Shown here one piece after another: positions 383 through 24,184 of a stretch of 64,000 nucleotides of DNA. The translations under genes and the position numbers were made by a program. This DNA comes from Pseudomonadota bacterium (lineage in GTDB: Bacteria > Pseudomonadota > Gammaproteobacteria > UBA9214). The notes below the pieces were generated by a model, which ran no database searches, had not been told where the DNA came from, and saw only the letters and a list, made by a program, of their open reading frames with translations. Location of the stretch: assembly GCA_039714975.1 (NCBI GenBank), contig JBDLIH010000007.1, forward strand, positions 4,199-68,198, in the 5' to 3' direction. The first letter of the stretch is position 1. Every line of letters starts with the position of its first letter.

Positions 383-1732
383 CTACCTGGCTGCCACCTT
401 AACAGACACCGTTTGCTTCTTGCCCGACTTGAAGGTCAGCGTCATATCGACCTCCTGCCCTGTACTCAGGTGTTCCTTCGGCCGCATCATCATCAAATGC
501 TTGCCCCCGGGCTCGAACTGGATTTGACCGTTCGCAGTAATCACCATGTCTGTCACTTCACGCATTTCCATAAAGCCATCGACCCTGGCCATTTCATGTA
601 CTTCGATAGTTTCATAAGCCTCGCTCTCCACCTTGACCAGTGTGATTTCTTCGGAGCCCGCGTTTACCAGCGTCATGTACCCGGCATTCACCGTCGCGTC
701 GGTATGCGCTTCACGAACCCATGCGTTCATGATTGCGACCACATCACCATCCAGTTTGGCCGGGCTGGTTGTGGACACTGCTTTCACGGGCGTCACAATA
801 CTATCCAGCGGTTCATCCCCCGCAATCCTTTGCGTTTCATCAGCCATGTAGTCGAGCAAGGACAATGCCTCTTCCTTGTTTAAGCGCATATTGGGCATGG
901 CCAGATTGTTGTACTGTTTGTAGAGTGCCATTGCGACAGGGTCTTTCTTCTTCAACATCTGGTCCGGCGCCTTCAGCCAGTCGAGTAGCCATTGCGGTTC
1001 ACGTTTGCGGGTAACACCCAGCAGGTCCGGCCCCAGCGCATCCGCCAGTTCATTACCGGTAATTGAATGGCATGAGGCACAGCGTGTACGAAATATTTGT
1101 TCACCCCGCGGAATACTGCGCAACTCGGGGGCATTCGCATAGTCATCACCACGCGGCGGCGCCTTCCAGCCTGACAGCCAGTTACCAACCTGATCAGCAA
1201 GCACATAGGGATTCTCGAAGGGCGAACGTTTCATCCACCGGCCGGTGGTCTGATTACCAATGATCATGTTGACATTGTGATTATTCGATCCTTCCTCCTG
1301 GATCTCCTCGATGTACAGGCCGAGCTTCCTGCGAATTTGAATAATGTCCGATTTTTTACCGGTCAAAAATGTCCAGTTGGCCTTGAATCTTTTGCGGTAC
1401 TCCTTGAAGACTTCCGGGGTGTCGTTTTCAGGATCGACTGAGATAGAGTAAAAGAAAACATCCTCGCCCACCCGGTCACCGAGGATATTTTGCACCCGGA
1501 CGAGTTGTGCCGTCTCCAGCGGACAGGTGTCCGGACAATGGGTATAGATGAAGTTGATCACGACGATCTTGTCCTTAATCAGATCATCAAAGAAATGCAC
1601 CGTTTTCCCTTCGTGGGTGACCAGCGGAACATTGGGGAAATAGTTCGCACCCCAGGGTGATGCTGAAGTGAAACCGGGGATACTACTCGTTATCAACAGG
1701 GCGAAGGCCGCCACCCAGGAATACCTATGCAT
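383..1732 (-). CDS. Three-domain copper-trafficking fusion: Sco1/SenC (thioredoxin fold) + class I cytochrome c + PCu(A)C (DUF461) copper chaperone; secreted
   Basis: N-terminal signal peptide. Sco motifs HCPDTCP (CxxxC) and DPENDTPEV. Heme c site CASCH. C-terminal PCuAC-type H/M copper motif (HEMARVDGFMEM..., GGKHLMMMRP). Confidence 0.75.
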   Translation of the reverse strand: MHRYSWVAAFALLITSSIPGFTSASPWGANYFPNVPLVTHEGKTVHFFDDLIKDKIVVINFIYTHCPDTCPLETAQLVRVQNILGDRVGEDVFFYSISVDPENDTPEVFKEYRKRFKANWTFLTGKKSDIIQIRRKLGLYIEEIQEEGSNNHNVNMIIGNQTTGRWMKRSPFENPYVLADQVGNWLSGWKAPPRGDDYANAPELRSIPRGEQIFRTRCASCHSITGNELADALGPDLLGVTRKREPQWLLDWLKAPDQMLKKKDPVAMALYKQYNNLAMPNMRLNKEEALSLLDYMADETQRIAGDEPLDSIVTPVKAVSTTSPAKLDGDVVAIMNAWVREAHTDATVNAGYMTLVNAGSEEITLVKVESEAYETIEVHEMARVDGFMEMREVTDMVITANGQIQFEPGGKHLMMMRPKEHLSTGQEVDMTLTFKSGKKQTVSVKVAAR

Positions 1733-1880
1733 AGTATTTATCTTACGAAAGTTGTTGCAATAAAAAAAGGGTTCGCGGTGAGCGTTATTCTGCTCACCGT
1801 GAACCCGGCTCTGTCAATCCAGCTGCTACAAAAACCAGGTAGCGGCTGGTACTACTCTGTTATTGACAGGACTCCCCTCC

Positions 1881-4800
1881 CTATTTACCCGCATTCCGTG
1901 CACGGTGGATAGCAGCATCCAGCGTGACCGGTGTCGGGCAGTTCACCACGTGTGGCGCGTTCGCGCTGGTGAAGTCGTAGTCATCGACTCGAACACCCGT
2001 GTTATCACCCTCTGCAACACGCGGCGGTGCCGGCCACTCAAGGATCTCCACCCTGCCGTCTTTACGCAGTTGCCTGAGCTCCTTCAACCCTTTAACTACC
2101 CGGTCGTGAGGCTCCAGCCAGTGTGCAAAGCCGATGTGCCACATCGGGCTGTAATCGTCTTCCGGCATGAAGTAGGACGGAAGACCGACCTGACTGCCGA
2201 ACGGACCACCGCCACCGTTGATACCACACCCTTCAGAGCCGCAGTTATACTCACCGCCATCTGCAGTCGCAGGTTGCGGCATTGGCGGGAAGGTTGGATC
2301 GACGTGACGTTTACCCGGCATCCACTGCACCAGCGGTACGGCCGTAGTACCGAGGAACTCATGCTTCGGCACATATGGCACACCCATGGCCCGTGCCGGA
2401 GGGAACGGGAAGGTGTCGACCACGATGTAGTATGGCAGGTAATCACCATGCTCACTAGCCCACGACTTGTGCAGCTTCAGCGTCACGTACGGAGGATTCG
2501 CATCGGTGTCCATTTCGACCACATGGCCGGAATTGTTGTAACGACCCCATGCAGTACCGTTGTAGGCACAGGTGGTGTTCGGCGGAGAATCAGGGAAGCT
2601 GTTACAGGTTCTGTCTGTCCTGTTCTGCTCCCAGTCTTCGTCACCCCATTTCATGAAGATTATGTTGAACACCACATCCTTGCCATCGATGTTCACACGA
2701 CGCAGCGGTGAGTAGGTGTTGGTGTCGCTGACATCAGGGATGTTAGCGTCGTTCAGACACGGTTCACCATTAACATCGGGATCACCTACGCGACAGGCCG
2801 GATTTGCCCAGACCGGGTTCGGCAGATCATCGTAGAAGGTCCACTCCAGCTTGTTGCCCTTGCGTTTCACACTGGCTTCAGCCGTAGCTGCCGGATTGAC
2901 ACCTGTCAGTCCACCGCCCCAGGCAATACCCAGCTCTTCCGAGAGTTCTTCATCACTGACATCGTGCATAATGAAGTAAACGTCTCTCTCATTGCCGTTG
3001 GCATCGACATGGGTGCCCTTCTCCAATTCGAAGGTTATCCCACCACGCTCGTTGTTGTCGTTCGGATCGAGCGCATCACCGATGGGTTCATCGCGGATGT
3101 TGTCGAAATGGCTGATCGTCACGCCATTCTTGATCCAGACTGACAGCGGATCCAGCTCAGGACCGAACTGACCGACATCGTCACCCTCCCTGAAGGTCGG
3201 CAGCGCAACAGAGTCGACATAGCCTACGCCATCCCAGGTCGGGAGTGGTGTCGGCATCAGCTTGACCTGTCCCGGATGCTCGATATCCCAACGCAGTAAC
3301 ATTGCGTGGTCTTCGTGCTGGGTGTTGTGGCAGTGCTCCATGTAGGTGCCTGCAAATTCCCTGAAGCGCAGTGCGATCTCAACCAGGTCGCCACTGTCGG
3401 GTTGCGGTCCCAGACGGTATACGTCCTTACGCGCCCACTGCTCATAATCAGGTGGCGCTACACCATTGCGGCGCAGGATAATACCTTCCTCGAAGTGAAT
3501 ATGAATCGGATGGCTCCAGGTGCCACTGTTGATCAGTCGCCAGACCTCCAGACCACCCGAGTTCTTGCTCGGCGCTGCTGATATACGGCGTGGATCCATG
3601 CCAAAGCCTTTACCACCATCGGTTTCGATCACCCAGGGTTTCTCGTCCGTGGGTTGTCTTTCAAATTCGAAAGAGCGATGCAGGGCGTTGGCCAGTTCCG
3701 CTTCGGTAGGCCTGTTCAGCGGAATCATCTTCTTGCCGCCGGCCACATACTCGGATGGATCCATACTGAGATCCTCGCCGTCGTATTCCGCCACGCGGAA
3801 TTCCAGGAACTTACCGACGACCGGGTCACCATTCACCCAGCAGTCACCGACAATGCCGTCTTCGTCACAGTCACCATGCTCAGCTGCGTAAACGCCACTG
3901 ACCACATCGGCCAACGGAATCGCTGCATCAGCTGTCACGCCATCCTTTTGCTGCATCAGGTTGACCATATAGAGCCTGTCGCCAGCATTAAACTGACTGA
4001 AATCTACAATGATGTCGTAACGTTCCGCGATACCCTGGGTGGGCAGCTCGCCGTTCTCGAAATAGACGCTGTGCTCCATGATGTTGCCGTCGTTGGCAAC
4101 CATGTAGAACGGTACCGGGGTACCTGTCTCGTCCACCAGTGCCAGCTTGAAGAAACGTGACACTGAACCGTTCAGGATACGGAAACGGTACTGGCGTGCA
4201 CGCACCTCCATGTAAGGCTTGTACAGCCAGTTGACGGTCATCACGTCACCAGCGAAGCCCATGAGATTGAAGGGGTTGAACCACAGCTGACCTTCATCGT
4301 CCCAGGCCTTTTCGGCAACCAGCAGGTTGACGTCGTAATCGCGGTTACCCCAGTCCAATTGTTCACCACTGGGGAAACGCAGGTTGACGCCATCATCGAT
4401 GGCTTCATTACCACGGTCAATTGCACTGTAGTAGTTCATCATGGCGGCATTGCCCTTGTAGACATTCTGCGCCGTGAAATCGAGCATATGATCATGGAAC
4501 CAGTGAGTACTCATGGTCTCACGCCAGTCACCCGGGACTTGATTGATGCCACCGGCACCATCCGGTGATCCAGCTCGAGGATCGCTGGCATCGGTGTTAA
4601 TGGTATCGCTGCCAGCCAGCGTCATCGGCCAGCGATAGTCATAGAACTGACCCGGGAAGAAGAAGCTGTTGGCATAGCCATCACTCTCGGCCGGGTTGTG
4701 TCCATTATGCTCGTGGGTAGAGATGGTGTGCACACCAAAGCCACGGTTCGCCGCCACATCGATGGGCAATGCATTGTAGTGACGGAACAGTACCGTCTCG

Positions 4801-5738
4801 CCATAACGGGCAGTGAGCAGTTTGGGCGGCAGGGTGCCGTCAAATGTCCACAGTGATTTGTGGTCCTGCACCGGCATGTCCGGATGGAACTTGATGGCGA
4901 TGCCTTCTGTCGTTCCCTCAAACCCGGGAGCGCCTACCGTGTTGTGGTAGAGCCCACCTAGACCAAATTCACCGTCATTGTAGTCGTGACCCTGCAACTG
5001 ATCACGTAAACCGCCGTTCACACGGGCGCCTGCCATCGCGCTCTGGAAATATTCTGTGGGAGTGAAATCGTCCCAGCGCTGATGCGACCAGCCCAGACCC
5101 GGCGGCCGACCTTCGGCAGGCGGATCATCCAGAGGTCTGCCGAGATAGTTTTCGATTTCCGCTGCCCAGGGATTCGTATCCTGGTCGTTGGCAAACACGG
5201 TTGGGACAGGCCAGATACTCTTGTCGAGAAAATCTTCAAGGGCCGCGCCATCCGGAGCACTCTGGGCACTCGCGGGTGCCGGTAACGACGTCCAGCCGTT
5301 TGGCTTTTTCGCGTCCAAGTCAAGTGCTTTGGTCCCGAACTCCTCGAAGCGCAAAATCTGCTGGGTAAATGCCTCGGCGCCAAACAATGGGCTGGGTGGT
5401 CCATTGCTCGGGACATTAAATACGGCCTCTTCTTCAGGCCGCTGATCTGCCGGCTGCAGCGTGTTAGACGCTTCCGCGTCTTCGGTATGGCCGGTTTCAC
5501 CGCCCTCAAAAGTACCCAGGTTCGCGTCTGGCAGGCCTTCGAGCGCACTACCATCACCATCGATCACCAGAGGAGTTAACGCTGAAGGATCTTGATTGTT
5601 GTCACCTCCGCCTCCTGGACCACCTTTGGCCGCTGCGCTGCTCGTGACGCCAAGGCACATGCTCAATAAGGCTGTCCCCAGGATTCCAGGAATGTGTGTA
5701 GTGTTACCAAAATACGGGAAATTTCTTTTTCTAGACAT
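1881..5738 (-). CDS. Giant multicopper oxidase, probable lipoprotein (~1285 aa; alternative start at 5762). CotA/bilirubin-oxidase-like core with long N- and C-terminal extensions
   Basis: All four MCO copper motifs are present in order: HTISTHEHNGH, THWFHDHM, HPIHIHFEEG, HCHNTQHEDHAM. Signal peptide with a lipobox-like LSMCLG. No Met-rich segment. About 300-aa low-complexity N-terminus and about 480-aa C-terminal extension. Confidence 0.8.
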   Translation of the reverse strand: MSRKRNFPYFGNTTHIPGILGTALLSMCLGVTSSAAAKGGPGGGGDNNQDPSALTPLVIDGDGSALEGLPDANLGTFEGGETGHTEDAEASNTLQPADQRPEEEAVFNVPSNGPPSPLFGAEAFTQQILRFEEFGTKALDLDAKKPNGWTSLPAPASAQSAPDGAALEDFLDKSIWPVPTVFANDQDTNPWAAEIENYLGRPLDDPPAEGRPPGLGWSHQRWDDFTPTEYFQSAMAGARVNGGLRDQLQGHDYNDGEFGLGGLYHNTVGAPGFEGTTEGIAIKFHPDMPVQDHKSLWTFDGTLPPKLLTARYGETVLFRHYNALPIDVAANRGFGVHTISTHEHNGHNPAESDGYANSFFFPGQFYDYRWPMTLAGSDTINTDASDPRAGSPDGAGGINQVPGDWRETMSTHWFHDHMLDFTAQNVYKGNAAMMNYYSAIDRGNEAIDDGVNLRFPSGEQLDWGNRDYDVNLLVAEKAWDDEGQLWFNPFNLMGFAGDVMTVNWLYKPYMEVRARQYRFRILNGSVSRFFKLALVDETGTPVPFYMVANDGNIMEHSVYFENGELPTQGIAERYDIIVDFSQFNAGDRLYMVNLMQQKDGVTADAAIPLADVVSGVYAAEHGDCDEDGIVGDCWVNGDPVVGKFLEFRVAEYDGEDLSMDPSEYVAGGKKMIPLNRPTEAELANALHRSFEFERQPTDEKPWVIETDGGKGFGMDPRRISAAPSKNSGGLEVWRLINSGTWSHPIHIHFEEGIILRRNGVAPPDYEQWARKDVYRLGPQPDSGDLVEIALRFREFAGTYMEHCHNTQHEDHAMLLRWDIEHPGQVKLMPTPLPTWDGVGYVDSVALPTFREGDDVGQFGPELDPLSVWIKNGVTISHFDNIRDEPIGDALDPNDNNERGGITFELEKGTHVDANGNERDVYFIMHDVSDEELSEELGIAWGGGLTGVNPAATAEASVKRKGNKLEWTFYDDLPNPVWANPACRVGDPDVNGEPCLNDANIPDVSDTNTYSPLRRVNIDGKDVVFNIIFMKWGDEDWEQNRTDRTCNSFPDSPPNTTCAYNGTAWGRYNNSGHVVEMDTDANPPYVTLKLHKSWASEHGDYLPYYIVVDTFPFPPARAMGVPYVPKHEFLGTTAVPLVQWMPGKRHVDPTFPPMPQPATADGGEYNCGSEGCGINGGGGPFGSQVGLPSYFMPEDDYSPMWHIGFAHWLEPHDRVVKGLKELRQLRKDGRVEILEWPAPPRVAEGDNTGVRVDDYDFTSANAPHVVNCPTPVTLDAAIHRARNAGK

Positions 5739-5873
5739 TGCGACCCCCCCAGGTTTTGACATGAATACACGCGCACCATTTTTTGAAGTTGCCTCATGGC
5801 CGCGATTGTTTGTTGGATTCGGGCGCTAATTTCTCACATGTAATAAATGTTGTATGTAACCCTGGATACGGGC

Positions 5874-5895
5874 TTGTGTAACCTGAATTACACAA
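5874..5895. promoter_or_regulatory. 22-bp palindrome TTGTGTAA-N6-TTACACAA in the divergent promoter between the oxidase and the Crp/Fnr regulator gene
   Basis: Perfect 8-bp inverted arms read directly from the sequence. Candidate Crp/Fnr-family operator. Confidence 0.4.
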
Positions 5896-6078
5896 CAAAT
5901 TTATCTCGAAAATATTTTTGTTTTTATGGAATAAACGAGTCTTCCCGGGCATCTATAAATATAAGTACGACTACCCGGGTGAATCACTTTCAGGACGGTT
6001 TATTGATGTAATTTTCACTTATATCGAAGCGGAGTTTATTTTTTGACGGTGAAAAATCAGGTTCCTGACCTACCAAAA

Positions 6079-6095
6079 ATAGGGATTTTCCCTAT
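6079..6095. promoter_or_regulatory. Palindrome ATAGGGATTTTCCCTAT (copy 1 of 3 of a recurring motif)
   Basis: 7-bp inverted arms. Near-identical copies at 17247-17263 and 19410-19426, all intergenic. Confidence 0.4.
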
Positions 6096-6308
6096 GCCCC
6101 CTTTCTTGATTCTTTCATTAAAATGGGGCGAGGCATTCCTCAGGGTTTACTACGTCAGAATTGGTCTTGCTTCACCAGTTTAAGACATGCTCCAGACTGG
6201 ACTGTTGTTCGCAACTGTAAAGAACACAAAATATAATGCCGGATGTAGCGGCCCAATAAACAACAAGTGATGTACTTGCGCATCTCCTGCAGACAGGACT
6301 GACAACCA

Positions 6309-6995
6309 GTGTTCAAAACCAGAACCATTGACTGGCGCCAACATTATCCACAGCTTGCGTCAATTGCAGATCCCGCCTGGATAGAGGCAATTAAGCATTT
6401 GGAGCCAATCACTGTGCCCGGCGGAACCCAGGCATATATAGCTGGTGATGAATGCCGAAACTTTCTGTTACTCCTAAAGGGCAATATTCGGGTTTATGCC
6501 TCCGGACGGGGTGGCCGTGAGATTGTCCTCTACCGTATACAGCCGGGCGAATTCTGTATTCTGTCACTCGTCTCATTCCTGCAGGGCAGCTCATTTCCTG
6601 CGAATGCGGTCACTGAAAACGAAGTGCAGGCCCTGGTCATGGACCGTAACGTCTTCATACGGGCCATGAAAAATTCACCGGCCTTGAATGACATCATGGT
6701 GATGGAACTGAGTAATCGATTTATTGAAGTCATTAACCGGGTTCAGGAGCTTGCGTTTGAACCGCTCGATATACGGATGGCCAATCTGTTATGCAGGCGG
6801 TTCCGTGAAGAACACGGGACAACGATTGAAATCACCCATAGCCAATTAGCCCAGGAACTGGGTACCACACGGGAAGTTGCAAGCCGAATGCTCAAGGACC
6901 TGGAACGCGGCAGTTACATCAGACTTTCGCGCGGTAAGGTCAGTTTGCACGACAATGAAGCAATCGGACGCATGTATCAGTTGGGAGAGCAGTAA
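6309..6995 (+). CDS. Crp/Fnr-family transcriptional regulator
   Basis: cNMP-binding-like N-terminal domain. C-terminal HTH ELAQELGTTREVASRMLKDLERGSYI. Confidence 0.8.
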   Translation: MFKTRTIDWRQHYPQLASIADPAWIEAIKHLEPITVPGGTQAYIAGDECRNFLLLLKGNIRVYASGRGGREIVLYRIQPGEFCILSLVSFLQGSSFPANAVTENEVQALVMDRNVFIRAMKNSPALNDIMVMELSNRFIEVINRVQELAFEPLDIRMANLLCRRFREEHGTTIEITHSQLAQELGTTREVASRMLKDLERGSYIRLSRGKVSLHDNEAIGRMYQLGEQ

Positions 6996-7035: not shown

Positions 7036-8355
7036 TCATTCCTCCGGTTTCCCCAGTACAACAATGTAACCCGCAACGGGCTGCCCCTTGTCCATTCGCA
7101 ACACGCTCTCCTCAAGGTACACTTCCTGCAAGCCAACGGCTTCTGCCAGTCTGATCAGATAGCCAATTGAGTGTGCATAGCGCCCGGTGGGCCTTAACAC
7201 AAAGTTGCCATCCCCCTCTTTCGCCTCGATGGAAAAGGCAAACAGCCCACCGGACCTCAACGCCGTGCCAATTGCCTCAAACACCTGATCCAGCCCGCCT
7301 ACATAAATAAAAACATCGGCAGCCAGGACAAGGTCATACGCATTGTCGTGTTTACGCAGTTCTTTTGTTATATCTGCCGTAACAAGCCTGTCATACAGCT
7401 TGCGTTGGCTTGCCCTGGCCAGCATTCCCGGCGAGAGATCCACACCCACCATGGTTCCGGCCATGCCACGAAACAGGGGGCCGCATAAACCGGTACCACA
7501 ACCGAGGTCCATCACATCCAGTTCCTGTTGTTCGGGACCGAGCAGCCGTGATACTGCCTTGTGGAGACTCCGGGGAACCTGATACCCGAGCTCCTCGACA
7601 AGGTGCTGGTTAAAATACGAAGCACACCCATCAAACAAACCGACTACATAGCCGGCCGGTGCGGATTTCGTAGTATGTCCTTCCAGTGCAGCCAGCATGT
7701 GTCGTGCACTGGTATTTTTGTTATCCAGTTGCAAGGTAAGTTCAAACAGGGCCCTGGCTTCATCCCTCCCTCCCTGCTCCATCAGCATGGTTGCCAGACT
7801 GTTACAGGCATCCGGAAAATTCGGCTCAAGGGTCAGCGCACGTTTCATTGCTGCAATGGCCTCATCCTGGCGCCCCTGCGTATGCAACAGGTCACCATAG
7901 TTGTAATGTGCCAGCGCGAAATCCGGGGCAATACTGATAGCCTGCCGGAATGCATCAAGCGCGGCATCCGGCTCCCCGGCAGCACGCAAGGCATTGCCCA
8001 GATTGTTATACGCCAGCGCGAAACCGGGGTTGATCCCGACAGCCTTCCGGAAGGCATTAATTGCCTCTTCGAAATTACCGCCAGCCTGCAGGGCGGAACC
8101 AATATTGGTGAACAGTTCAGCACTTGCCGGGCCCCGCTCGACAGCGACGGTTAAAAGCCTGATGGCTGTTTCACTATCCCCTGACTGGTGTTCAAGCAAA
8201 CCCAGCATATGGAGGGTGTCTGCATGCTGCGGTCTTGCCTTGAGAATCTTTTTGTATATCTGCCTTGCTTTCTGTAGTCTGCCGGCCCGGTGCTGTTGCA
8301 CCGCAAAGTCGAGTTTTTCCTGGATTGCGCTTCGTTTCATCCGGACTACGTTCAC
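7036..8355 (-). CDS. TPR-repeat protein fused to a class I SAM-dependent methyltransferase
   Basis: N-terminal TPR repeats (AxxYxxLGxxxxxxGxxxEA pattern, at least 5 copies). C-terminal VMDLGCGTGL SAM-binding motif. Confidence 0.7.
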   Translation of the reverse strand: MNVVRMKRSAIQEKLDFAVQQHRAGRLQKARQIYKKILKARPQHADTLHMLGLLEHQSGDSETAIRLLTVAVERGPASAELFTNIGSALQAGGNFEEAINAFRKAVGINPGFALAYNNLGNALRAAGEPDAALDAFRQAISIAPDFALAHYNYGDLLHTQGRQDEAIAAMKRALTLEPNFPDACNSLATMLMEQGGRDEARALFELTLQLDNKNTSARHMLAALEGHTTKSAPAGYVVGLFDGCASYFNQHLVEELGYQVPRSLHKAVSRLLGPEQQELDVMDLGCGTGLCGPLFRGMAGTMVGVDLSPGMLARASQRKLYDRLVTADITKELRKHDNAYDLVLAADVFIYVGGLDQVFEAIGTALRSGGLFAFSIEAKEGDGNFVLRPTGRYAHSIGYLIRLAEAVGLQEVYLEESVLRMDKGQPVAGYIVVLGKPEE

Positions 8356-10238
8356 TGGTCTCGCGCGGCACGCCGCACGCGCACCACGCCCAGGATTATA
8401 GCCAGCACAATCACCACCAGTGGCACCAGTGCGATGTTGATGATTTTCAGCCGGGTTCCCAGCAACTCGATATCCTTGCTGAGCGCATGCTGCACATTAC
8501 GCAGGTCTTTTCTTATTTGAATATGCTCAGCCCTGAATTTATTGATTTCATCCAGTTGAGCCTCGCTCATCACCGGCTCGCCCGTCTCGCTGGTCACTTC
8601 TTTCTGCAGTTCCCTGATCTTGTGCCCGGTCGCACTCAGCTTCTCCTGAAGCAGCAACTCCTTGATGCGGAATTCCTGGTCTGCAGCAGCCCTGAGATCC
8701 GCAACTCTTTCAAACGGCCTGACCGAGCGCCCGCGACTCCTGAGGTTGATGAGGTCATTACTGCCACTGAGGTTATCCAGCGCATTGATGACAAAGGTAT
8801 CGTTATCGGCACTTGGTACTGCGGCACGCCTGCCGTAAAAATCCTGAAAGCTCACCCAGAACATGTCCCGCAGCATGTCGGTATCGGCAACGATAATCAC
8901 ATTCGCCGGCTCACTTGATTCTGTCAGACGGCCTGACTCCCCGCCCCCATTGATACCCTCCGGGAAGGCGGATAGCACGTTCCCATTGACCCTGGCCGCC
9001 AGCACGAATGGTTCACCGCCAGACTGGTAGGCCTGCAGCAGTTCCTCGGGGCTGGTAAAAAACTGGATGCTGGCGGCATCGATCGGCATGGACTGGTCGC
9101 TGGTCATGACCATGGGTGTGAAACGTGTTTTCGCCCCGGCGCGCTGGCGCAGAATCCCGGCACTGCCCATCACCAGACTGTTCAGTCGGCCACTGACAAA
9201 GTCCTCGCGACTGAAATTATCCTCCCCCAGAGTCAACCAGGCGACATAGTCCACGACGCCCTTCTCCTGCCCGCCCACGGTAGACTTGATACGGGTTGCA
9301 GCCTGCCGGTCGGCGGCAACCAGGTAAGGCACCAGTTCAACCCCCCACGCCTCCATCAGCTTCCCGAGGTCCGATGCACGCGCCGAGGTGACGTACTCCT
9401 GTTCGCCCTCTGCCGGCTTCTCGATTTCCACATCGGCCTCGGCAAACGGGTCGAGGAAGGCGAGTACGCGGCCACCACCCAGCACGTACTGGTCAATGGC
9501 AAACAGTGTCTTCTCATCGGTTTGCTTCGGATGCACGATCATCAACACATCAACATTTTCAGGAATCGATTCGGGCGAATTCCCCAGGTCCTGTATATCA
9601 AACGAACGTTTTAACTGGGTCAGGATGAACCACTCCTGCGTCCTGTCGAGAAACACGTTGGCTGGACCACCATCCAGCGGCAGGGAGGAGATCAGTCCGA
9701 CCACCGGTCGTTGCGGATTCGCCAGGCCATAGACCAGCCCGGACAGTTCATACTCCAGTGACTCTTCCTGCTCCGGCTGAAAATAGGGTAGCGCGCGCCA
9801 TTTCCCGGCGGCATTGCCCCCAACCAACCCGAAATAGGCCAGACTGCCGGCCGTGTCCACAGGCGTCCCCTGCAGGCGGTAGTGCATTGCCTCGGCCTCT
9901 TCATCGGAGAATGGTTCCGGATTTTTGACCACCAGCTCGATCTGGCCGTCTGCCAGCGCGACGTATTGCTCAAGCAACTCCTTTACCTGCTGGCCATAGG
10001 TCGTGATCGCCGGCATACCACTGAACAGCTGTTCGGAGAAATAGAAACGCAGCGTGATTTTCTCATCAAGATTGCCAAGGATGTTCTGCGTACCCTCTGA
10101 CAGGGTGTACAGGCGGTTTGCGGTCATATCGAGATGCTGACCCTTGAGGAATACCCCGGCGGCCAGGTTGATAACAATCAGCAGCACCGCCACTGCGACC
10201 AGACCCGCCCCGGAAAATAATTTCTGCCCCTTCAGCAT
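8352..10238 (-). CDS. GldG-like ABC-transporter auxiliary component (large periplasmic protein with N- and C-terminal TM segments)
   Basis: Sits in an operon with an ABC-2 permease and ATPase and overlaps the preceding TPR-methyltransferase ORF by 4 bp. GldG-like size and topology, with an N-terminal TM segment (AGLVAVAVLLIVINLAAGVF) and a C-terminal one (IINIALVPLVVIVLAIILGVV). Confidence 0.6.
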   Translation of the reverse strand: MLKGQKLFSGAGLVAVAVLLIVINLAAGVFLKGQHLDMTANRLYTLSEGTQNILGNLDEKITLRFYFSEQLFSGMPAITTYGQQVKELLEQYVALADGQIELVVKNPEPFSDEEAEAMHYRLQGTPVDTAGSLAYFGLVGGNAAGKWRALPYFQPEQEESLEYELSGLVYGLANPQRPVVGLISSLPLDGGPANVFLDRTQEWFILTQLKRSFDIQDLGNSPESIPENVDVLMIVHPKQTDEKTLFAIDQYVLGGGRVLAFLDPFAEADVEIEKPAEGEQEYVTSARASDLGKLMEAWGVELVPYLVAADRQAATRIKSTVGGQEKGVVDYVAWLTLGEDNFSREDFVSGRLNSLVMGSAGILRQRAGAKTRFTPMVMTSDQSMPIDAASIQFFTSPEELLQAYQSGGEPFVLAARVNGNVLSAFPEGINGGGESGRLTESSEPANVIIVADTDMLRDMFWVSFQDFYGRRAAVPSADNDTFVINALDNLSGSNDLINLRSRGRSVRPFERVADLRAAADQEFRIKELLLQEKLSATGHKIRELQKEVTSETGEPVMSEAQLDEINKFRAEHIQIRKDLRNVQHALSKDIELLGTRLKIINIALVPLVVIVLAIILGVVRVRRAARDQ

Positions 10239-10265
10239 TACACTGCACCTGTTATCATTTTACTT

Positions 10266-11000
10266 TTAATCCGACTTCTTCATCTCGACGGCAATGATGT
10301 TTGCCAGCAGCCAGCAACCGATAAACGAAAAAAAGAACACCAGGTCACGCAGATCGATCACACCCTTTAGCATAGAATTGAAGTGGGTGGTAATACTCAT
10401 GCCACTGATAGTGTTGATCAACGGCTGCGGCAACCAGGCCTGGAACAGATCCAGTACCATCGGTGTGCCGGAAAGCATGAAGACAAAACAGATGACCACG
10501 GCAATCACAAAGGCAATCACCTGGTTGCGTGTGAAAGCCGAGACACAGGACCCGACAGCAAGATAGGCGCCCGCCATGAGATAACTGCCGATATAGCCGA
10601 CCAGGATCACAGGATTGTCCGGGTTGCCCAGGTAGTTCACCGTTAACCAGATCGGGAAAGTCAGCATCAGCGCAATACCGGTGAAGGTCCAGGCAGCGAG
10701 GAACTTGCCGGCAACCGCCTGCCAGGTGGAGATCGGCAAGGTCATTAGCAATTCGATGCTGCCTGACTTGCGCTCCTCGGCCCACAGCCGCATCGACAAG
10801 GCAGGGATAAGAAACAGGTACAGCAGTGGTTGATAGTCAAAGAAAGTCTGCAGATCGGCCTGCTCACGTTCGTACCAGCCACCCACGTAGAAGGTGAACA
10901 CGCCATTCAGTGCCAGGAAGATCACAATAAACACATAGGCTACCGGGGTGGTAAAATAGTTGCCCAGCTCACGCCGGAAGATGGCAGCCGTCGCACTCAT
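10266..11000 (-). CDS. ABC-2 family permease (GldF-like)
   Basis: Six predicted TM helices. Overlaps the ATPase gene by 4 bp. Confidence 0.7.
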   Translation of the reverse strand: MSATAAIFRRELGNYFTTPVAYVFIVIFLALNGVFTFYVGGWYEREQADLQTFFDYQPLLYLFLIPALSMRLWAEERKSGSIELLMTLPISTWQAVAGKFLAAWTFTGIALMLTFPIWLTVNYLGNPDNPVILVGYIGSYLMAGAYLAVGSCVSAFTRNQVIAFVIAVVICFVFMLSGTPMVLDLFQAWLPQPLINTISGMSITTHFNSMLKGVIDLRDLVFFFSFIGCWLLANIIAVEMKKSD

Positions 11001-11962
11001 GACAGATCACCCTCATCCACCGACCCGCCATGCGAGGTAATCCGCCGGAACACCTCGTCCAGCTGACCGGTGGCAACATAGACCTCTTCAATTTCCCAGC
11101 CCTCGTCTCGAACCAGACGGGTGACCTGCCCCACGATGGACACGCCGCCTCCGGGCATCACAATAAGGCGATTCAGTGCCTGCTCACGATTCACCCCGGC
11201 GACATTATCCAGTGCACTCAGACGTTGCTCGGCAATATCCGGAAGCCCGCCGGCGAAGGTGATAGTCACCGCATTGTGCTGTCGTGACATCGCCTCCAGT
11301 GCCTGTGGCGTGCCATTAAATACCAGCCGCCCCTGCGCAATAATCACGGCACGGTCGCAGATGGCATTCACCTCTTCCAGAATGTGCGTGGAAATGAGGA
11401 TGGCCTTGTCTCGCGCCATTTCACTGATCAACTCGCGCACTTCGTGCTTCTGGTTAGGATCCAGCCCGTCTGTGGGTTCATCCATGATTAAAATGGGAGG
11501 GTCGTGCAGAATTGCCTGCGCCAGACCCACGCGACGCTTGAAGCCCTTGGACAGGGTATCGATGGGTTTGTGGATCACACTACCCAGGTTTGCCTTCCGG
11601 ATAGATGAATGAATACGGTCCTGCTTTTCCGTTCCCCGGAAACCACGGATATCTGCAATAAAACCCAGAAACCCGGTGACGGTCATTTCACCGTAAGCCG
11701 GAGCACCTTCCGGCAGGTAACCGATACGCTGCTTGACTTGTGTTGGATACTTGCCGACATCGAGGCCATCCACCCGGATCTGCCCGCCACTTGATGCCAG
11801 GAAACCGGTGATCATTTTCATGGTGGTGGACTTGCCCGCGCCATTCGGGCCAAGAAACCCCAGCACCTCGCCCCGGTTCACATCAAAACTGACGCCATCC
11901 ACTGCAGTGAAGGCACCGAACTCCTTGCGCAGAGACTCAACTACAATTGCGGACTCCATCAT
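10997..11962 (-). CDS. ABC transporter ATP-binding protein (GldA-like)
   Basis: Walker A GPNGAGKST, signature LSKGFKRR, Walker B ILIMDEPT. Confidence 0.85.
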   Translation of the reverse strand: MMESAIVVESLRKEFGAFTAVDGVSFDVNRGEVLGFLGPNGAGKSTTMKMITGFLASSGGQIRVDGLDVGKYPTQVKQRIGYLPEGAPAYGEMTVTGFLGFIADIRGFRGTEKQDRIHSSIRKANLGSVIHKPIDTLSKGFKRRVGLAQAILHDPPILIMDEPTDGLDPNQKHEVRELISEMARDKAILISTHILEEVNAICDRAVIIAQGRLVFNGTPQALEAMSRQHNAVTITFAGGLPDIAEQRLSALDNVAGVNREQALNRLIVMPGGGVSIVGQVTRLVRDEGWEIEEVYVATGQLDEVFRRITSHGGSVDEGDLS

Positions 11963-12594
11963 TTAGTGCTATTAGCAGGCTCGGCTGGTTCCGGTACAGC
12001 GCCCTCTTCTTCCCCAGGCCAGTAGGTGGTAAACGTCTGTTCGACCAGCAGGTGGTCCTGATACCAGATCTGGAAAGTCCACTCGCCCTCCACCAGCTCA
12101 TAGTCCTCGTTGAAGGCATAGCCGTCAAAGCCAATCACCTGTCCAACGCTCAGGCGACCCTTGAAGGTACGCTCGGATCCCATGGTTGTGGACTCGTCGG
12201 GTAAGCTCATCTCGGGATGAATCAGGACCTTCCTCAATTCAACGGCCGGTTTTTTTGCCACTTCCGTTGGTAAATCCATGATGCGGTAGCGATAGGCAAA
12301 ATAGGTATCCTTTACCAGGGGAATGCGGTCGGTCTGTTCAGCCAGTTCAAGAACCGGCTTGTTGATCACCTTCCCGGTGTTTGCGGTTATTTCATCCCGT
12401 ACCCGGCCCTTTCTCTGTGCGTTATATATTCCGTGTTCGAAAACCCTGCCGTTCGGATCCTTGACGTCTGCGGGCTGCGCCCGGGCTTGTGTGTCCGCAG
12501 TGTCGGAATCCGTATTCGTTTTGCTGTCATTGTCAGTAGCCTTATCGCAGCCGGCCAGTACGGCCAAGACCAAACACGCTATCAGGTATTTCAT
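11959..12594 (-). CDS. Lipoprotein of unknown function, first gene of the ABC operon
   Basis: Start refined to MKYLIACLVLAVLAGC (lipobox LAGC). 4-bp overlap with the ATPase start. Confidence 0.55.
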   Translation of the reverse strand: MKYLIACLVLAVLAGCDKATDNDSKTNTDSDTADTQARAQPADVKDPNGRVFEHGIYNAQRKGRVRDEITANTGKVINKPVLELAEQTDRIPLVKDTYFAYRYRIMDLPTEVAKKPAVELRKVLIHPEMSLPDESTTMGSERTFKGRLSVGQVIGFDGYAFNEDYELVEGEWTFQIWYQDHLLVEQTFTTYWPGEEEGAVPEPAEPANSTK

Positions 12595-12744
12595 GGAATC
12601 CCCCTTTGTACAGAAAAACATTTTTAATGTTATACCTTAAAACAAGACAAATCAGAACAGGGAAAGTTTCCGCTTTAACCAGCAGGCCATGTACAACAAA
12701 GAAGGGGCTTGCGCCCCCTCTCCGGTATGCAGTATTACCTGCCC

Positions 12745-14139
12745 TTAGTCATCCAGTGGCAGTCCGCTCGGCACGCCGTTGACAACATCCTGGTCACTGC
12801 GAAGGTCAAGACTGGCCGGGTCCGTCAGCGCATTCAGGAAGTCGATAATGCGATCGACGTCCTCATCACTGTAGGCAAACGGGTCCAGCTCGTTGTGAGC
12901 CGCGATAAAATCAACACGATCCGGATCATCCATGGCGATATAGTTCTCCGCATCCAGGGTCGGATGGGTCGGAAGGACTGCCTGCCGGTTGCTGTTGTAG
13001 GTATAGAGTGCGTTGACCGCATCCACGTGGTGTTCGACAACTGCGCGCAGTGTATCGTAGGCACCGCCATGACCATAAGGTGCAGTCAAAGCCACATTAC
13101 GTAATGTTGGAGTGCGGAACTTGAGCGTATCTGCCGGATCTCCGGTTACCTGCTCACGACCAAAGTCTTCATGGCCACCGGTCTTGCCAGGGCTGTTACT
13201 GCCGCGGCCTGAGCCAATCTGCGGCATTGCAATAGCATGGAAAGAATTGTCGGTCTGGTACAGGCCACTGTGGCAGCTTGCACAGGCATTGCCATTACCA
13301 TCACCCTCGTAGAACAGTTCCATGCCGGCCAGGGCATTTTCACTCATGGCGCCTTCGTCGCCACGGAGCAACTGGTCGAAAGGGCTGTTATCCGCACGCC
13401 AGGTTTCACCCTCAAAAGCCGAAATGGCATTGGCGGCATGGGCATAGGTGATATCACCGGCGCTGAGTACGTCGCCGGGGAAAGCGGCTTTAAACATATC
13501 AACGTATACAGGAATGGCCTGCAGGCGTTGCGCCAGCTGCTCCCAGACACCGCCAGGATCGGCCAGGTTACCGGCACCTGCTGCATCGGCAATGGAGTTC
13601 TCACCCGGCTGACCCGCCATTTCTGTACCAGATGTCACAGGAAACATGGCCTGACATGCCAGCACGTTTTCCAGGTTGCCTGGCAGATTGTGACCAGCCG
13701 GTGTCTTGCAGCCGCTTGGGAAGCCTTCCCCACCGACGGTTGTCACACGGCCATCGTGGAACATGGTGTGGAATGAGTTGTCACCCAGATTCCATACATG
13801 CGGCGCATTGCGTGGCACACGTTCGACGACCAGATCTGCACCTGAACCCACATTACGGGTTACACCCAGACCTTTACCACCTTCACCAACGGGTAATGAA
13901 AGACCGTCACCGGTACCTGTCAAAGAGTGGTGGCAAGTACCGCAGGAAATGTTCTGATTACCACTCAGGATCTTATCGAACATCAAAACCCGACCCAATT
14001 CTACCTTTTCTGCACTCGGTGTGCGGAAGTCATAATTGGGTTCCGGCAGATCGAGACCGTTGCCCTTGGCGTTTACCGTGCCACTGATTCCCAGCATCGC
14101 GACAGCGACAGCGGCAGCAATACAGCTATTTGTTTTCAT
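12745..14139 (-). CDS. Di-heme cytochrome c peroxidase / MauG-family enzyme
   Basis: Signal peptide. Two heme c motifs, CGTCHH and CASCHSG, spaced as in the CCP/MauG family. Confidence 0.8.
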   Translation of the reverse strand: MKTNSCIAAAVAVAMLGISGTVNAKGNGLDLPEPNYDFRTPSAEKVELGRVLMFDKILSGNQNISCGTCHHSLTGTGDGLSLPVGEGGKGLGVTRNVGSGADLVVERVPRNAPHVWNLGDNSFHTMFHDGRVTTVGGEGFPSGCKTPAGHNLPGNLENVLACQAMFPVTSGTEMAGQPGENSIADAAGAGNLADPGGVWEQLAQRLQAIPVYVDMFKAAFPGDVLSAGDITYAHAANAISAFEGETWRADNSPFDQLLRGDEGAMSENALAGMELFYEGDGNGNACASCHSGLYQTDNSFHAIAMPQIGSGRGSNSPGKTGGHEDFGREQVTGDPADTLKFRTPTLRNVALTAPYGHGGAYDTLRAVVEHHVDAVNALYTYNSNRQAVLPTHPTLDAENYIAMDDPDRVDFIAAHNELDPFAYSDEDVDRIIDFLNALTDPASLDLRSDQDVVNGVPSGLPLDD

Positions 14140-14396
14140 CGTATAGTCTCCCCATTATGTTTAAGTGCACTTTGGCTTGTGTAGATATCCAGACAACAGG
14201 CAGTGCTCGTTCCCGAAACCCTGCACTGAAAAACAATACAAACGACTGACGTTTTCCAGACACCCGCCCCCTTGTCATACCTGTCGTGACAGGCTGATCT
14301 AGAATCAGTCTTTGTATTGATGAAATTCAGACCGAATTTATTCCCTGATTTTTACCCGTTGTAAAAATGGCAGGGAAGTATTTTGCAGGCGAGCAT

Positions 14397-14429
14397 AAAA
14401 AACCGGCGGGCAGTTGCCTGCCACGCCGG
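14397..14429 (-). terminator. Rho-independent terminator downstream of the 239-aa secreted protein gene
   Basis: On the minus strand: CCGGCGTGGCAGG-caa-CTGCCCGCCGG followed by TTTTTT. Confidence 0.6.
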
Positions 14430-14541
14430 TAGAAGCTAGTCTTGCACGTACGGGGAAGCGCGCAAGACCGAAAGCTTTTCTTCAACGGGCTATCAAATAA
14501 ATCAGGCCTGTCGAGTTAAAGCTTTTTTAGACGACCTGGTA

Positions 14542-15246
14542 TCAGGGATACTGGAACCAGGCTTCACGCTTGCTCGGAGACAGGCCATGACCGAGACCAT
14601 CCTGGCAGTGTGACACGATGCGCAGCATGAACGGACCGCCAATTCCTGCATCAGTTGGATTCACAATTGTTGTCGGAATCGGCTGAGCATTGGGGTTTTT
14701 TGTCTGCGCAAGCAAATGGTCGGCATGATCCATTCTGTTGAATGGATAGGAACCACCCAGTACCGGGAAATCCAGGCTGAGGTTTAACACACCTTCACCA
14801 TCGGAGTTGGTTGTGAAACCGTTTGGCTGTGTAGAGCTACCGGCTCCAACCCAGTCAGCGACCAACTGAGCCAGGCCACTACTGGGTGCCAGAGGTGTTG
14901 CACCACCACCGGTGATCGGGCTGCCACCGAAACTTGCGCCATGGGCAGCGCCTTTCATCCGCACCCACACGGTATACAGTGTGTTGGGCGCAGCGCCTCC
15001 CACTTCGATCTCTACCGTACTGTTTCCATTGGTCTGGCTGATCACAAGCGAAGCGGTTGCATCCTGCCAGCTGTTACCGCTCGGGTCTACCGGGCATTCT
15101 GCTTCCACAGTGTCACCACTGCCACTGGCGCTGCCTGCAGGCCGACGGCTGAAGTCATCCTTCAGGGTCGCGGCCTGGGCGATACCAGAAAGGGTAAGCC
15201 CGCTAACTAAAGCGGCGATTGCTGTTGTTAAAATGGAACGTTTCAT
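14542..15246 (-). CDS. Secreted protein of unknown function
   Basis: Signal peptide MKRSILTTAIAALVSGLTLSGIAQA. Gly/Thr/Ser-rich. No recognisable motif. Confidence 0.5.
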   Translation of the reverse strand: MKRSILTTAIAALVSGLTLSGIAQAATLKDDFSRRPAGSASGSGDTVEAECPVDPSGNSWQDATASLVISQTNGNSTVEIEVGGAAPNTLYTVWVRMKGAAHGASFGGSPITGGGATPLAPSSGLAQLVADWVGAGSSTQPNGFTTNSDGEGVLNLSLDFPVLGGSYPFNRMDHADHLLAQTKNPNAQPIPTTIVNPTDAGIGGPFMLRIVSHCQDGLGHGLSPSKREAWFQYP

Positions 15247-15404
15247 TAGAACTCCTCCCAATTATTGCTATTTAAAAGTAAGTATTACTACTTCTTGATA
15301 AAAAGACCTGTTATCGCCCTAAGGCTCCCCCCGGCCTTTAAACGTGGCCTCCGGCAGGCGATACGCCGCCCGCCGGAAGACAAGTGCTTGCTATTGCTAA
15401 CTGC

Positions 15405-17009
15405 TTACTGAATGAACGCCTCGTGAATGACCATCAGCATGCGCGGGTCGACGAAGTCATCGACGAGCACATTATTGCCATTGGCCCGGCCCAGGTAGGT
15501 CGCGATTGGCTGGGCACAACCACTGTTGTCAGCACCCGGGGCTTGGCTACCATCACATGGGGTCGTTTTGTCCCAGCTTTCGGCGAGATCGTTAAACTCA
15601 GGATTGCCATCAGCATCTTCCGGCAGGATCGAGTACTCGCCAACACCACCACCCGGAACGAAGCACGGAGCCGGCGGAACCCCACCCGTTACCGTGCAAC
15701 CCGGATTGAAGGCAGACGCTGCAATTAACAGGGTTTCCACATCACAGGCCGTGCCATCAACACCAGGACCACCGATGTTGTCACAGGCCACGGCGGACAT
15801 GCGGTTGGGACGGATACCGGCAATGACGTTCACACCCGGGTCCAGACCAATGGTGCGATCCGGTGAGTCACTGCCCAGATCGACAACCTGGACCTTCTGA
15901 CGGAACACGCCCGGGTTACAACCACCCGGTGTGCCGGGAATTTCTCCCTCGAGGCAGTCCCTGGAACGTTCCCGGTCGGTCACGTAGATGGTACCGTCTT
16001 CGTCATAGCCCCAGGCACGCAGCGAGTCGCGACGTGACGGATCATCGGCCGGTGTACCTGGACGCATGTCGATCCAGCGAGTAATGACAGCATTATTTTC
16101 AGGTTCGTCAAGCTCGAATGAATCGTCATCCTTATTGGAACCTACGCCAGCGACTTCATCAGAAAGACCGGCTTTCCAGTCAACCATGGCGATAGCTGCA
16201 CCGTGGAACATACTGACGCCCATGCCTTCCTCAGAGAATGCAAGGCCAGCCATACAGGTCCAGCGAGCATCTGCATCAGCAGGCTGGTTGTATTCGTCGA
16301 TTACATTCAGAGATTCCTGATCCAGCACCAGCACACGGCTGTTGGCAGAGCGAGCAGCTGTCTGGTACACCGGAGGGAAGAACAGGTTGGAGGCATTCGC
16401 TTGCGAGTCGTCACCGCTTGGGCTGACTGAATCCGAGTTCTGCGCATTGAAGAAGTTGGCATCGCAGATGGCCTGTACGATATTTCCGTTCGGCATCATC
16501 TGGGTACCCAGTGGACGCGGCAAGGAACCACGACCAGCAGGACCTGTGGGGTTACCCAGCAGTGGTCGGAAAGACACTGTGCGGATCGGGGTGCCATCAC
16601 GATGGAACTCGGTCAATGACTGCTGCGCCGCACTGGTGATGAAGGCGTGGCCGTTCAGACCACCGGACAGTACACCGGTGGGCTTGAAGGGACCGGGGCA
16701 TTCCTGTGAATCTGGACAAATCGGGCCACCAGCATTACCGGGATTGAACGGGTTGTTTACCGTGATACCGCGAGCACCGGTGACAATGTTAACTTCCAGC
16801 ACGTTACCTGGACCATTAGCGGCCGCCCATCTCGTTGCATCAGGGTTTGCAGGTGAAGGGCCGTTCATCGCATTAGCCATCATAAAGTTGGCCTCGAGAC
16901 AGGCCGGTGTACCGACGTCATCAAGACCATGTGCTGCTGCCGTGCCCACGGCTCCTGCAAGCAGGGCACCGCTCATTGCAGCAACGGTTTTTTTAAGTGA
17001 CATATTCAT
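15405..17009 (-). CDS. Secreted protein of unknown function (534 aa, Gly/Pro/Asn-rich, many Cys pairs)
   Basis: Signal peptide MNMSLKKTVAAMSGALLAGAVGTAAA. No recognisable catalytic motif. Confidence 0.5.
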   Translation of the reverse strand: MNMSLKKTVAAMSGALLAGAVGTAAAHGLDDVGTPACLEANFMMANAMNGPSPANPDATRWAAANGPGNVLEVNIVTGARGITVNNPFNPGNAGGPICPDSQECPGPFKPTGVLSGGLNGHAFITSAAQQSLTEFHRDGTPIRTVSFRPLLGNPTGPAGRGSLPRPLGTQMMPNGNIVQAICDANFFNAQNSDSVSPSGDDSQANASNLFFPPVYQTAARSANSRVLVLDQESLNVIDEYNQPADADARWTCMAGLAFSEEGMGVSMFHGAAIAMVDWKAGLSDEVAGVGSNKDDDSFELDEPENNAVITRWIDMRPGTPADDPSRRDSLRAWGYDEDGTIYVTDRERSRDCLEGEIPGTPGGCNPGVFRQKVQVVDLGSDSPDRTIGLDPGVNVIAGIRPNRMSAVACDNIGGPGVDGTACDVETLLIAASAFNPGCTVTGGVPPAPCFVPGGGVGEYSILPEDADGNPEFNDLAESWDKTTPCDGSQAPGADNSGCAQPIATYLGRANGNNVLVDDFVDPRMLMVIHEAFIQ

Positions 17010-18227: not shown

Positions 18228-18233
18228 TGTTGT

Positions 18234-22496: not shown

Positions 22497-22500
22497 CAAT

Positions 22501-24184
<1,684 letters not shown>

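Follow-up and report, generated by a model that had tools for sequence, protein, structure and literature searches.

The window analyzed here, a 64,000-nucleotide stretch of contig JBDLIH010000007.1 (assembly GCA_039714975.1), belongs to the chromosome of an uncultured member of the Pseudomonadota represented by a metagenome-assembled genome (MAG). Near its start are two tandem reverse-strand genes, one coding for a large multicopper oxidase and the other for a secreted protein in which Sco, cytochrome c and PCuAC domains are fused. From their sequence relationships, we propose that these genes form a two-gene cassette, which specifies a secreted McoA-type multicopper oxidase together with its own copper-loading chaperone and which, on balance, probably functions in Mn(II) oxidation. 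Going by homology, the oxidase almost certainly belongs to the McoA family; that it oxidizes Mn(II) in vivo is a closer call, in which we lean slightly toward the affirmative. The pairing of a McoA oxidase with a Sco protein is already known, and what appears to be new is a widespread, uncharacterized architecture in which the oxidase carries a DUF7482 tail and the chaperone a fused PCuAC domain. A preliminary description of the locus had advanced it as a candidate Mn(II)-oxidase system, centered on a secreted non-CueO oxidase with a chaperone of its own—a proposal that homology supports. The same description found no obvious place for the oxidase in the Mn-oxidase types that it named (MnxG, MofA and MoxA); McoA, the type to which we assign it, was not among them.

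The oxidase and its place in the McoA family

The assignment is carried by a BLASTP alignment of residues 15-850 of the oxidase with residues 12-923 of a Pseudomonas putida-group protein of 1131 amino acids (P0168, encoded in locus L084), which shows 54% identity over 836 residues (E=0) and stops at a common ...LPTFR. In L084, the gene for this oxidase (1131 amino acids) is followed by those for a SCO1-SenC/cytochrome c protein (327 amino acids), a GGDEF-EAL protein, a phosphonate-binding protein and a phage integrase. This is the order given for the five-gene mcoA operon of P. putida GB-1 (Table 4 of PMC11409713), and hence we regard P0168 as a McoA ortholog. In strains other than GB-1, conservation of that operon extends only to mcoA and the SCO1/SenC gene (PMC11409713); in GB-1 itself, MnxG as well as McoA supports Mn(II) oxidation (PMC13631088, PMC11409713). 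The window chaperone in turn shares 59% identity over 283 residues with the Sco/cytochrome c protein of L084.

Viewed through this ortholog, the window oxidase resembles GB-1 McoA (PputGB1_2665) in its signal peptide, N-terminal extension, three-domain core and identical copper motifs (HCHNTQHED..M), in having a Sco/cytochrome c fusion as the next gene downstream and in its long upstream spacer, which measures ~570 nucleotides (nt) in the window as against the 534-bp promoter region used for GB-1 mcoA (PMC11930936). It differs from the P. putida-group McoA (1131 amino acids) in ending in a DUF7482 module of 435 residues rather than in cadherin/Ig-like repeats; since the tail varies within the McoA family, we do not treat it as family-defining. 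Further differences from the GB-1 locus are the extra PCuAC domain of the chaperone and the presence of a CRP-like regulator and a palindrome; moreover, no GGDEF-EAL, phosphonate-binding or integrase genes follow in the window.

Like the MnxG-type loci, including the GB-1 mnxG operon with its two SCO1/SenC genes and the Bacillus Mnx system, the window combines a large secreted multicopper oxidase with a Sco-type gene. Unlike MnxG, however, the oxidase contains a single set of four copper motifs in its 1285 residues, as against the ~1900 residues of the NCBIfam MnxG model (NF041487), to which it gave no match at E 0.01 or better. The PhsA model scored 91.4 bits against a cut-off of 950. Pairwise homology among the classes of Mn-oxidizing multicopper oxidases is in any case only low (bioRxiv 10.1101/2022.11.10.515945); the same source cites a Km for Mn(II) of ~0.1 mM for the Mnx complex.

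The full open reading frame (ORF) of the oxidase in the ORF list runs from 1881 to 5762 on the reverse strand and would specify 1293 amino acids. A G-run (GGGGGGG) that could serve as a ribosome-binding site lies before a second ATG at 5738, and this start bears out the 1285 residues of the preliminary description; our residue numbering follows this form. The N-terminus consists of MSRKRNFPYFGNTTHIPGILGTALLSMCLGVTSSAAA followed by KGG, with likely signal peptidase I cleavage between AAA and K, and sequence inspection of the signal peptide found no twin-arginine (Tat) motif. The protein had been described as a lipoprotein, a label that has to be withdrawn: its L-S-M-C is not a canonical lipobox ([LVI][ASTVI][GAS]C), the AAA/K site follows it, and a canonical lipobox occurs in only 22 of 120 homologs, most of which end their signal peptides in AYA, the signal-peptide Cys not being conserved. 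Similarly, the ~300-residue low-complexity N-terminus reported earlier shrinks to a variable stretch at residues ~38-95, whereas residues 96-300 show per-column identities of 0.55-0.69 and are common to the Pseudomonas McoA proteins (e.g., PAEGRPPGLGWSHQRW).

The four motifs of the core, all of which the preliminary description had recognized, furnish the ligands of the type 1, 2 and 3 copper sites (H342, H344, H415, H417, H743, H746, H748, H802, C803, H804, H808 and M813), with Met813 as the axial type 1 ligand. Across 119 aligned full-length homologs, the conservation of each of the 12 is 98% or more. In a phmmer search of the PDB, the best solved relatives were bilirubin oxidase (E 2e-33), CotA and phenoxazinone synthase, and the first two matches mark the core as that of a three-domain multicopper oxidase. 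The likeness to these enzymes extends over domains 1-3 (E 2e-33 to 1e-13), the ligand pattern and the axial Met; however, the identity in the core is low, and they lack the N-terminal extension, the DUF7482 module and a dedicated chaperone gene. Taken together, the conserved features identify the predicted product as a secreted three-domain enzyme of the bilirubin oxidase/CotA/PhsA type with a full complement of type 1, 2 and 3 copper ligands.

The preliminary description had proposed profile searches and structure prediction for the regions on either side of the core. These were informative for the C-terminus, which it had held to be without a recognizable family but which matches Pfam PF24298, DUF7482 (E 2.6e-17). 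The N-terminal extension at residues 96-300 matched no Pfam family, and in an AlphaFold2 (AF2) model of residues 86-1285 (predicted local distance difference test score [pLDDT] 66.5) this extension and domain 1 are of low confidence.

The fused chaperone and the distribution of the cassette

The chaperone gene begins 148 nt downstream of the oxidase on the same strand, in agreement with the gap of about 150 bp noted before. Its three-domain composition, likewise noticed earlier, is confirmed by the Pfam matches (Table 1) and by the motifs CPDTC (C66-C70), DPENDTP and CASCH; judging from its position in the sequence, H152 would be the distal copper ligand of the Sco domain. The protein has its own signal peptide, with cleavage between FTSA and SP, and the exact sequence is present at NCBI as MEN8205056.1, where it is annotated only as "copper chaperone PCu(A)C". 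The His and Met residues of the PCuAC domain are H343, HEM at 379 and HLM at 412, with a spacing slightly off the canonical H(M)X10MX21HXM. The cytochrome c domain (residues 207-303) matched PDB entry 2L4D, "SCO1/SenC family protein/cytochrome c" (E 2.8e-34), which we take to be the cytochrome c domain of PP3183 from P. putida KT2440. As in that protein, a Sco domain is followed by a class I cytochrome c, to which the window protein adds the C-terminal PCuAC. Electron transfer between the heme and the Sco site was reportedly proposed by Banci et al. in 2011 ("Sco proteins are involved in electron transfer processes").

Sco and PCuAC proteins are an established periplasmic pair that inserts copper into cytochrome oxidases and NosZ, and copper transfer between them has been directly shown (PMC7558416, review). 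The window chaperone contains the same periplasmic domains as this Sco1/SenC and PCuAC (PccA) pathway, with the CxxxC and His of the former and the His/Met motifs of the latter. In contrast to the pathway serving CuA/CuB and NosZ, the domains are here fused around a c-type cytochrome, and the gene is dedicated to a multicopper oxidase rather than to a respiratory oxidase. Mn oxidation in GB-1 requires the cytochrome c maturation genes (PMC13631088), which fits a heme-bearing chaperone; the loss of Mn oxidation in such mutants of P. putida may be due in part to the heme domain.

In the scheme that we envisage, the oxidase would be exported unfolded via Sec, and the apo-enzyme would be supplied in the periplasm with its four coppers by the Sco-cytochrome c-PCuAC protein encoded on the same transcript. 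PCuAC would capture Cu(I) and hand it to, or work beside, the thioredoxin-like Sco domain, with the c-type heme giving or taking up an electron so that the copper or the CxxxC thiols stay in the proper redox state. Outside the cell, the mature oxidase would then convert Mn(II) via Mn(III) to Mn oxide and pass the electrons to O2, an oxidation such as mcoA, by genetic evidence, performs in P. putida GB-1.

A search of 5.8 billion proteins recovered more than 120 clusters with 64-88% full-length identity to the oxidase, all of them combining Cu-oxidase_2 with DUF7482. Across one genome per bacterial species (185,579 species), there are at least 580 relatives, which fall into two architectures. 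The full-length form with DUF7482 is found in Kangiellaceae, Colwellia, Paraglaciecola, Agarilytica, Methylomonas, Wenzhouxiangella, Parashewanella and Thalassomonas and also in MAGs of Verrucomicrobia, Flavobacteriales, Myxococcota, Acidobacteria and Desulfuromonadales. In the other, the similarity ends near residue 856; this form is seen in Pseudomonas, Planctomycetota, Geobacter-like bacteria, Rhodocyclaceae and others. The Pseudomonas versions are either of ~1131 amino acids with cadherin/Ig-like C-terminal repeats (PF17963, PF17892, PF17803) or of ~935 amino acids without a tail, and two of the latter are named "manganese oxidase" by NCBI. Pseudomonas genomes often code for more than one McoA-like paralog (among proteins P0121-P0240), and two of them can share a contig (e.g., P0206 with P0215 or P0138 with P0192).

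Using fragments of the window proteins as tblastn queries, we surveyed 85 related loci for the cassette. In 66 of these, the oxidase is immediately followed by a Sco-cytochrome c ORF in the same frame; three more have this ORF in another position, and most of the remaining loci end within ~1.3 kb of the oxidase core and are unscorable for it. PCuAC is fused to Sco-cytochrome c in 27 of 32 loci with DUF7482 as against none of 34 loci without it (Fisher p ~8e-14, a value that ignores shared ancestry). An iterative profile search agreed with this and detected an unfused PCuAC gene next to the pair only in three loci, all of Pseudomonas. In ten loci, mostly of Planctomycetota (L035, L037, L045, L049, L054, L055, L065, L073, L077 and L079), the Sco-cytochrome c ORF runs 75-117 residues past the cytochrome domain without similarity to PCuAC. 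Other neighbors of the window oxidase, namely the genes for a Crp/Fnr regulator, a tetratricopeptide repeat (TPR)-methyltransferase, an ATP-binding cassette (ABC) auxiliary protein and a cyclophilin, adjoin it only in L028, the locus of the closest relative (oxidase core 90% identical). Hence, the conserved unit consists of two genes.

Bacteria that oxidize Mn(II) influence the cycling of metals and carbon, yet marine gene surveys search for mnxG, mcoA, moxA and cotA in the forms known from a handful of model strains. The window locus shows the McoA family to reach well beyond Pseudomonas and to include a separate, marine-associated clade with another tail and a more elaborate chaperone. Cultured bacteria with the gene exist (Thalassomonas viridans, Colwellia sp. 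C1TZA3), in which the formation of Mn oxide by this clade is directly testable, and the fused chaperone, being one polypeptide, lends itself to work on copper acquisition by periplasmic multicopper oxidases.

The DUF7482 module and the substrate of the oxidase

Folded alone with 118 sequences, the C-terminal module (residues 851-1285) gave a high-confidence model (pLDDT 93.9; predicted template modeling score 0.92), and no match to it was found among solved structures, which makes it an attractive structural target. An exhaustive HMMER search of 1.84 billion representatives recovered only 67 relatives at E 0.001 or better, and the literature that we searched makes no mention of DUF7482. The relatives include standalone secreted proteins of 400-530 amino acids, which form ~113 clusters, mostly from MAGs and all annotated as hypothetical; the few clusters with named organisms come from marine or aquatic lineages. 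Some standalone versions (P0381, P0382) bear C-terminal type IX secretion system (T9SS) sorting domains, which point to a cell-surface or extracellular location. Two larger proteins combine DUF7482 with copper-protein modules. One is an Asn/Gln-rich protein of 1155 amino acids (P0286), with a plastocyanin-like segment (YYCTIHPYM) and two DUF7482 copies (Pfam E 5e-96). The other is a 2091-residue membrane-anchored MnxG-like oxidase that ends in DUF7482 (P0290, at 8001-15498 of locus L088). Its best NCBIfam match is the MnxG model at 149 bits, far under the cut-off, and separate SCO1/SenC and PCuAC genes follow it. Going by its domains, P0290 represents another class of oxidase that shares both the tail and the types of chaperone.

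Positions invariant across distant DUF7482 members are mostly Gly, Pro and aromatic residues, together with Ser928, Lys1088 and Gln1183, and no invariant set of His, Cys or Met is found among them. We therefore favor a role in binding or positioning over a conserved copper center. As a guess, DUF7482 might serve surface or extracellular positioning or binding rather than catalysis, in a placement analogous to that of the cadherin-like repeats of Pseudomonas McoA. The name of one homolog (P0044), "glycoprotein gp2", had suggested a further link, as two gp2 proteins rise in a hyper-oxidizing P. resinovorans mutant (PMC13631088). This was rejected: the profile search with the standalone DUF7482 proteins returned no Pseudomonas or gp2-named protein.

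Several observations weigh against the proposal of a Mn(II)-oxidizing cassette with its own chaperone. The function is carried over to the DUF7482-type members by homology; McoA itself is defined genetically, and we found no report of its purification. The orthology to GB-1 McoA passes through the operon match in a P. putida-group genome, and the cluster member lists name many strains of this group, GB-1 not explicitly. Multicopper oxidases are well established to be broadly promiscuous, and 54% identity leaves the substrate unfixed. The loading of the oxidase with copper by the chaperone is putative, and the candidate operator described below is supported by two loci. Mn oxidation genes in Pseudomonas depend on the MnxS1/MnxS2/MnxR sigma-54 pathway, whereas no sigma-54-like promoter was found in 5739-6308, the window-wide matches being at the level of chance, and no sigma-54 activator was found among the ORFs scanned out to ~30 kb. 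Finally, the standalone DUF7482 genes lack conserved neighbors and nearby copper genes (L086, L090-L094), and the distant members share no invariant metal-ligand set, as noted above.

Some of these observations would equally fit an enzyme that is McoA-like by descent but acts in the marine clade on a substrate other than Mn(II), such as Fe(II), Cu(I), iodide or phenolics and humics, with DUF7482 re-targeting it. Besides catalytic promiscuity and the different regulation, such a switch would agree with the identity of the nearest solved relatives (bilirubin oxidase, CotA laccase and phenoxazinone synthase) and with an architecture of tail and chaperone that is systematically unlike that of the Pseudomonas enzymes. 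We nevertheless consider it rather unlikely: identity stays at 54-60% across the whole catalytic region and the N-terminal extension specific to McoA, we found no residue-level sign of an altered substrate site, and the MnxG-like giant also has DUF7482, so that the module occurs with a second Mn-oxidase-like class. The correlation between the fused PCuAC and DUF7482 could also be read as a sign that the latter, as an additional domain, binds copper or is redox-active and depends on PCuAC for its metallation. The skewed distribution of the fusion (in which kinship is ignored) would be explained thereby, as would the separate Sco and PCuAC genes following the unrelated MnxG-like oxidase and the union of a cupredoxin-like segment with two DUF7482 copies in P0286. 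However, the conserved positions of the distant members are mostly Gly, Pro and aromatics, with no invariant His, Cys or Met set, no copper genes lie near the standalone versions, an unfused PCuAC gene also adjoins the pair in three Pseudomonas loci that lack DUF7482, and the association could stem from a single ancestral fusion inherited by the clade. An additional copper domain thus seems quite unlikely.

The adjacency of a multicopper oxidase to copper-handling domains, together with a weak match to the NCBIfam CueO model (E 1.8e-25), might instead suggest copper tolerance of the CueO/PcoA/CopA type, with the chaperone serving detoxification. This is very improbable and largely refuted. The CueO match reaches 89.8 bits against a cut-off of 525, the identity to McoA is far higher, and the C-terminal extension matches no characterized passenger domain. 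With a Met content of 2.4% and at most six Met in any 100-residue window, the oxidase lacks the Met-rich segment of CueO/PcoA, as the preliminary description had stated, and it has no Tat signal. No cop, cus or cue genes were found among the ~20 flanking ORFs scanned, out to ~30 kb, and loss of Sco-type chaperones blocks oxidase assembly while leaving copper sensitivity unchanged (PMC7558416, review). Mn(II) oxidation by a McoA-type enzyme with a dedicated chaperone remains the reading that we prefer. A far-reaching extension of it, which we put forward as a speculation and hold to be unlikely, is that, in marine and hydrothermal Gammaproteobacteria as well as in several other phyla, DUF7482-McoA proteins with the triple chaperone are the main unrecognized oxidases of Mn(II). 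On this view, DUF7482 would be a new fold and would confer a distinct property, such as mineral or surface docking, Mn(III) handling or an extra PCuAC-loaded metal site, which some MnxG-like giants would also possess.

Regulation and genomic surroundings

The spacer of ~570 nt between the oxidase and the divergent regulator gene holds one perfect palindrome, TTGTGTAA-N6-TTACACAA, centered ~146 nt upstream of the oxidase ATG. Its CRP-like core, TGTAA-N6-TTACA, is unique in the 64-kb window, with 0.01 matches expected by chance. A counterpart in L028, TGTAACCCAGGTCACA, lies at the same relative position in a short conserved island of an otherwise diverged spacer, within which GGTTACATACA follows it when the two loci are compared. 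The regulator itself is a generic member of the Crp/Fnr superfamily that scores well under every NCBIfam equivalog cut-off. Its only Cys residues are at 49, 83 and 162, and sensing of oxygen in the manner of FNR was ruled out by the lack of an N-terminal Cys cluster. The helix-turn-helix of CRP has the pattern R-E-x-x-x-R, and the recognition helix of the regulator reads R-E-V-A-S-R, which, along with the missing FNR cluster, makes a CRP-like half-site plausible. The divergent Crp/Fnr gene of the preliminary description is thus present, but its inclusion in the system was not sustained: across the 85 loci, it adjoins the oxidase only in L028 (74% identity), which rules it out as a conserved part. 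In this lineage only, the CRP-like regulator probably controls the cassette through the palindrome. In GB-1, mcoA is activated late and in colony centers, which the authors link to oxygen gradients (PMC11930936).

Table 1. Features of the oxidase-chaperone locus, in window coordinates
Feature	Residues	Position	Strand	Basis or remark
Multicopper oxidase gene, McoA family by homology		1881..5738	-	1285 amino acids + stop; alternative upstream ATG at 5762
Sec-type signal peptide	1-37	5628..5738	-	Sequence inspection, alignment, pattern count
Gly/Asp/Glu-rich linker	38-95	5454..5627	-	Per-column conservation 0.10-0.48
Conserved N-terminal extension	96-300	4839..5453	-	BLASTP vs P0168, conservation
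Three-cupredoxin-domain catalytic core	301-850	3189..4838	-	PDB phmmer, Pfam Cu-oxidase_2
Copper motif HEHNGH	342-347	4698-4715	-	
Copper motif WFHDH	413-417	4488-4502	-	
Copper motif HPIHIH	743-748	3495-3512	-	
Copper motif HCHNTQHEDHAM	802-813	3300-3335	-	
C-terminal DUF7482 module	851-1285	1884..3188	-	Pfam, AF2 model
Secreted Sco-cytochrome c-PCuAC fusion gene		383..1732	-	449 amino acids; Pfam
SCO1-SenC domain	37-155	1268-1624	-	Pfam PF02630, E 5.9e-24
Cytochrom_C domain	209-297	842-1108	-	Pfam; CASCH 218-222
PCuAC domain	334-442	407-733	-	Pfam PF04314, positions 1-109/109, E 1.8e-32
Perfect palindrome, candidate operator		5874..5895		Inverted-repeat search
Crp/Fnr-family regulator gene, divergent		6309..6995	+	228 amino acids; Pfam cNMP_binding + HTH_Crp_2

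Scans for promoters and terminators gave counts not above those of shuffled sequences; in the case of terminator-like hits, five were found in the region against 6.5 expected. One of the weak signals is a terminator-like hairpin with a T-run at 1834-1850 (reverse strand), within the 148 nt that separate the oxidase and chaperone genes. Directly downstream of the chaperone, at 1-318 on the reverse strand, is the 5' fragment of a gene for a secreted cyclophilin-type peptidyl-prolyl isomerase, cut by the window edge; a cyclophilin also follows the fusion in L028 (46% identity). The mofA operon of Leptothrix is said to include a prolyl isomerase gene, mofB, and the parallel may be a coincidence.

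On the other side, from ~7 kb to 30 kb of the window, ABC-transporter, regulatory and housekeeping genes (fab, tmk, yceG, pabBC) are found among the ORFs scanned. The reverse-strand genes at 7036-11962, which are syntenic with the oxidase locus in L028 only, code for a fusion of TPR repeats with an S-adenosylmethionine-dependent methyltransferase (439 amino acids), followed by an ABC system made up of a GldG-like auxiliary protein (ABC_transp_aux + DUF7088), an ABC-2 permease and an ATPase. At 12745-14139 (reverse strand), ~7 kb from the oxidase, lies a gene for a di-heme protein of the cytochrome c peroxidase/MauG family (Pfam CCP_MauG, E 2e-36). A sigma-70 family factor of the extracytoplasmic function type (192 amino acids) and a 247-residue ORF without a Pfam hit are encoded at 17649-18977 on the forward strand and could be a sigma/anti-sigma pair. 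Farther along, at 19586-22568 (reverse strand), genes for a LuxR-type response regulator, a HisKA_3 histidine kinase and a phosphonate-binding-family periplasmic protein occur in a row, and a protein of the last family is also encoded in the GB-1 mcoA operon.

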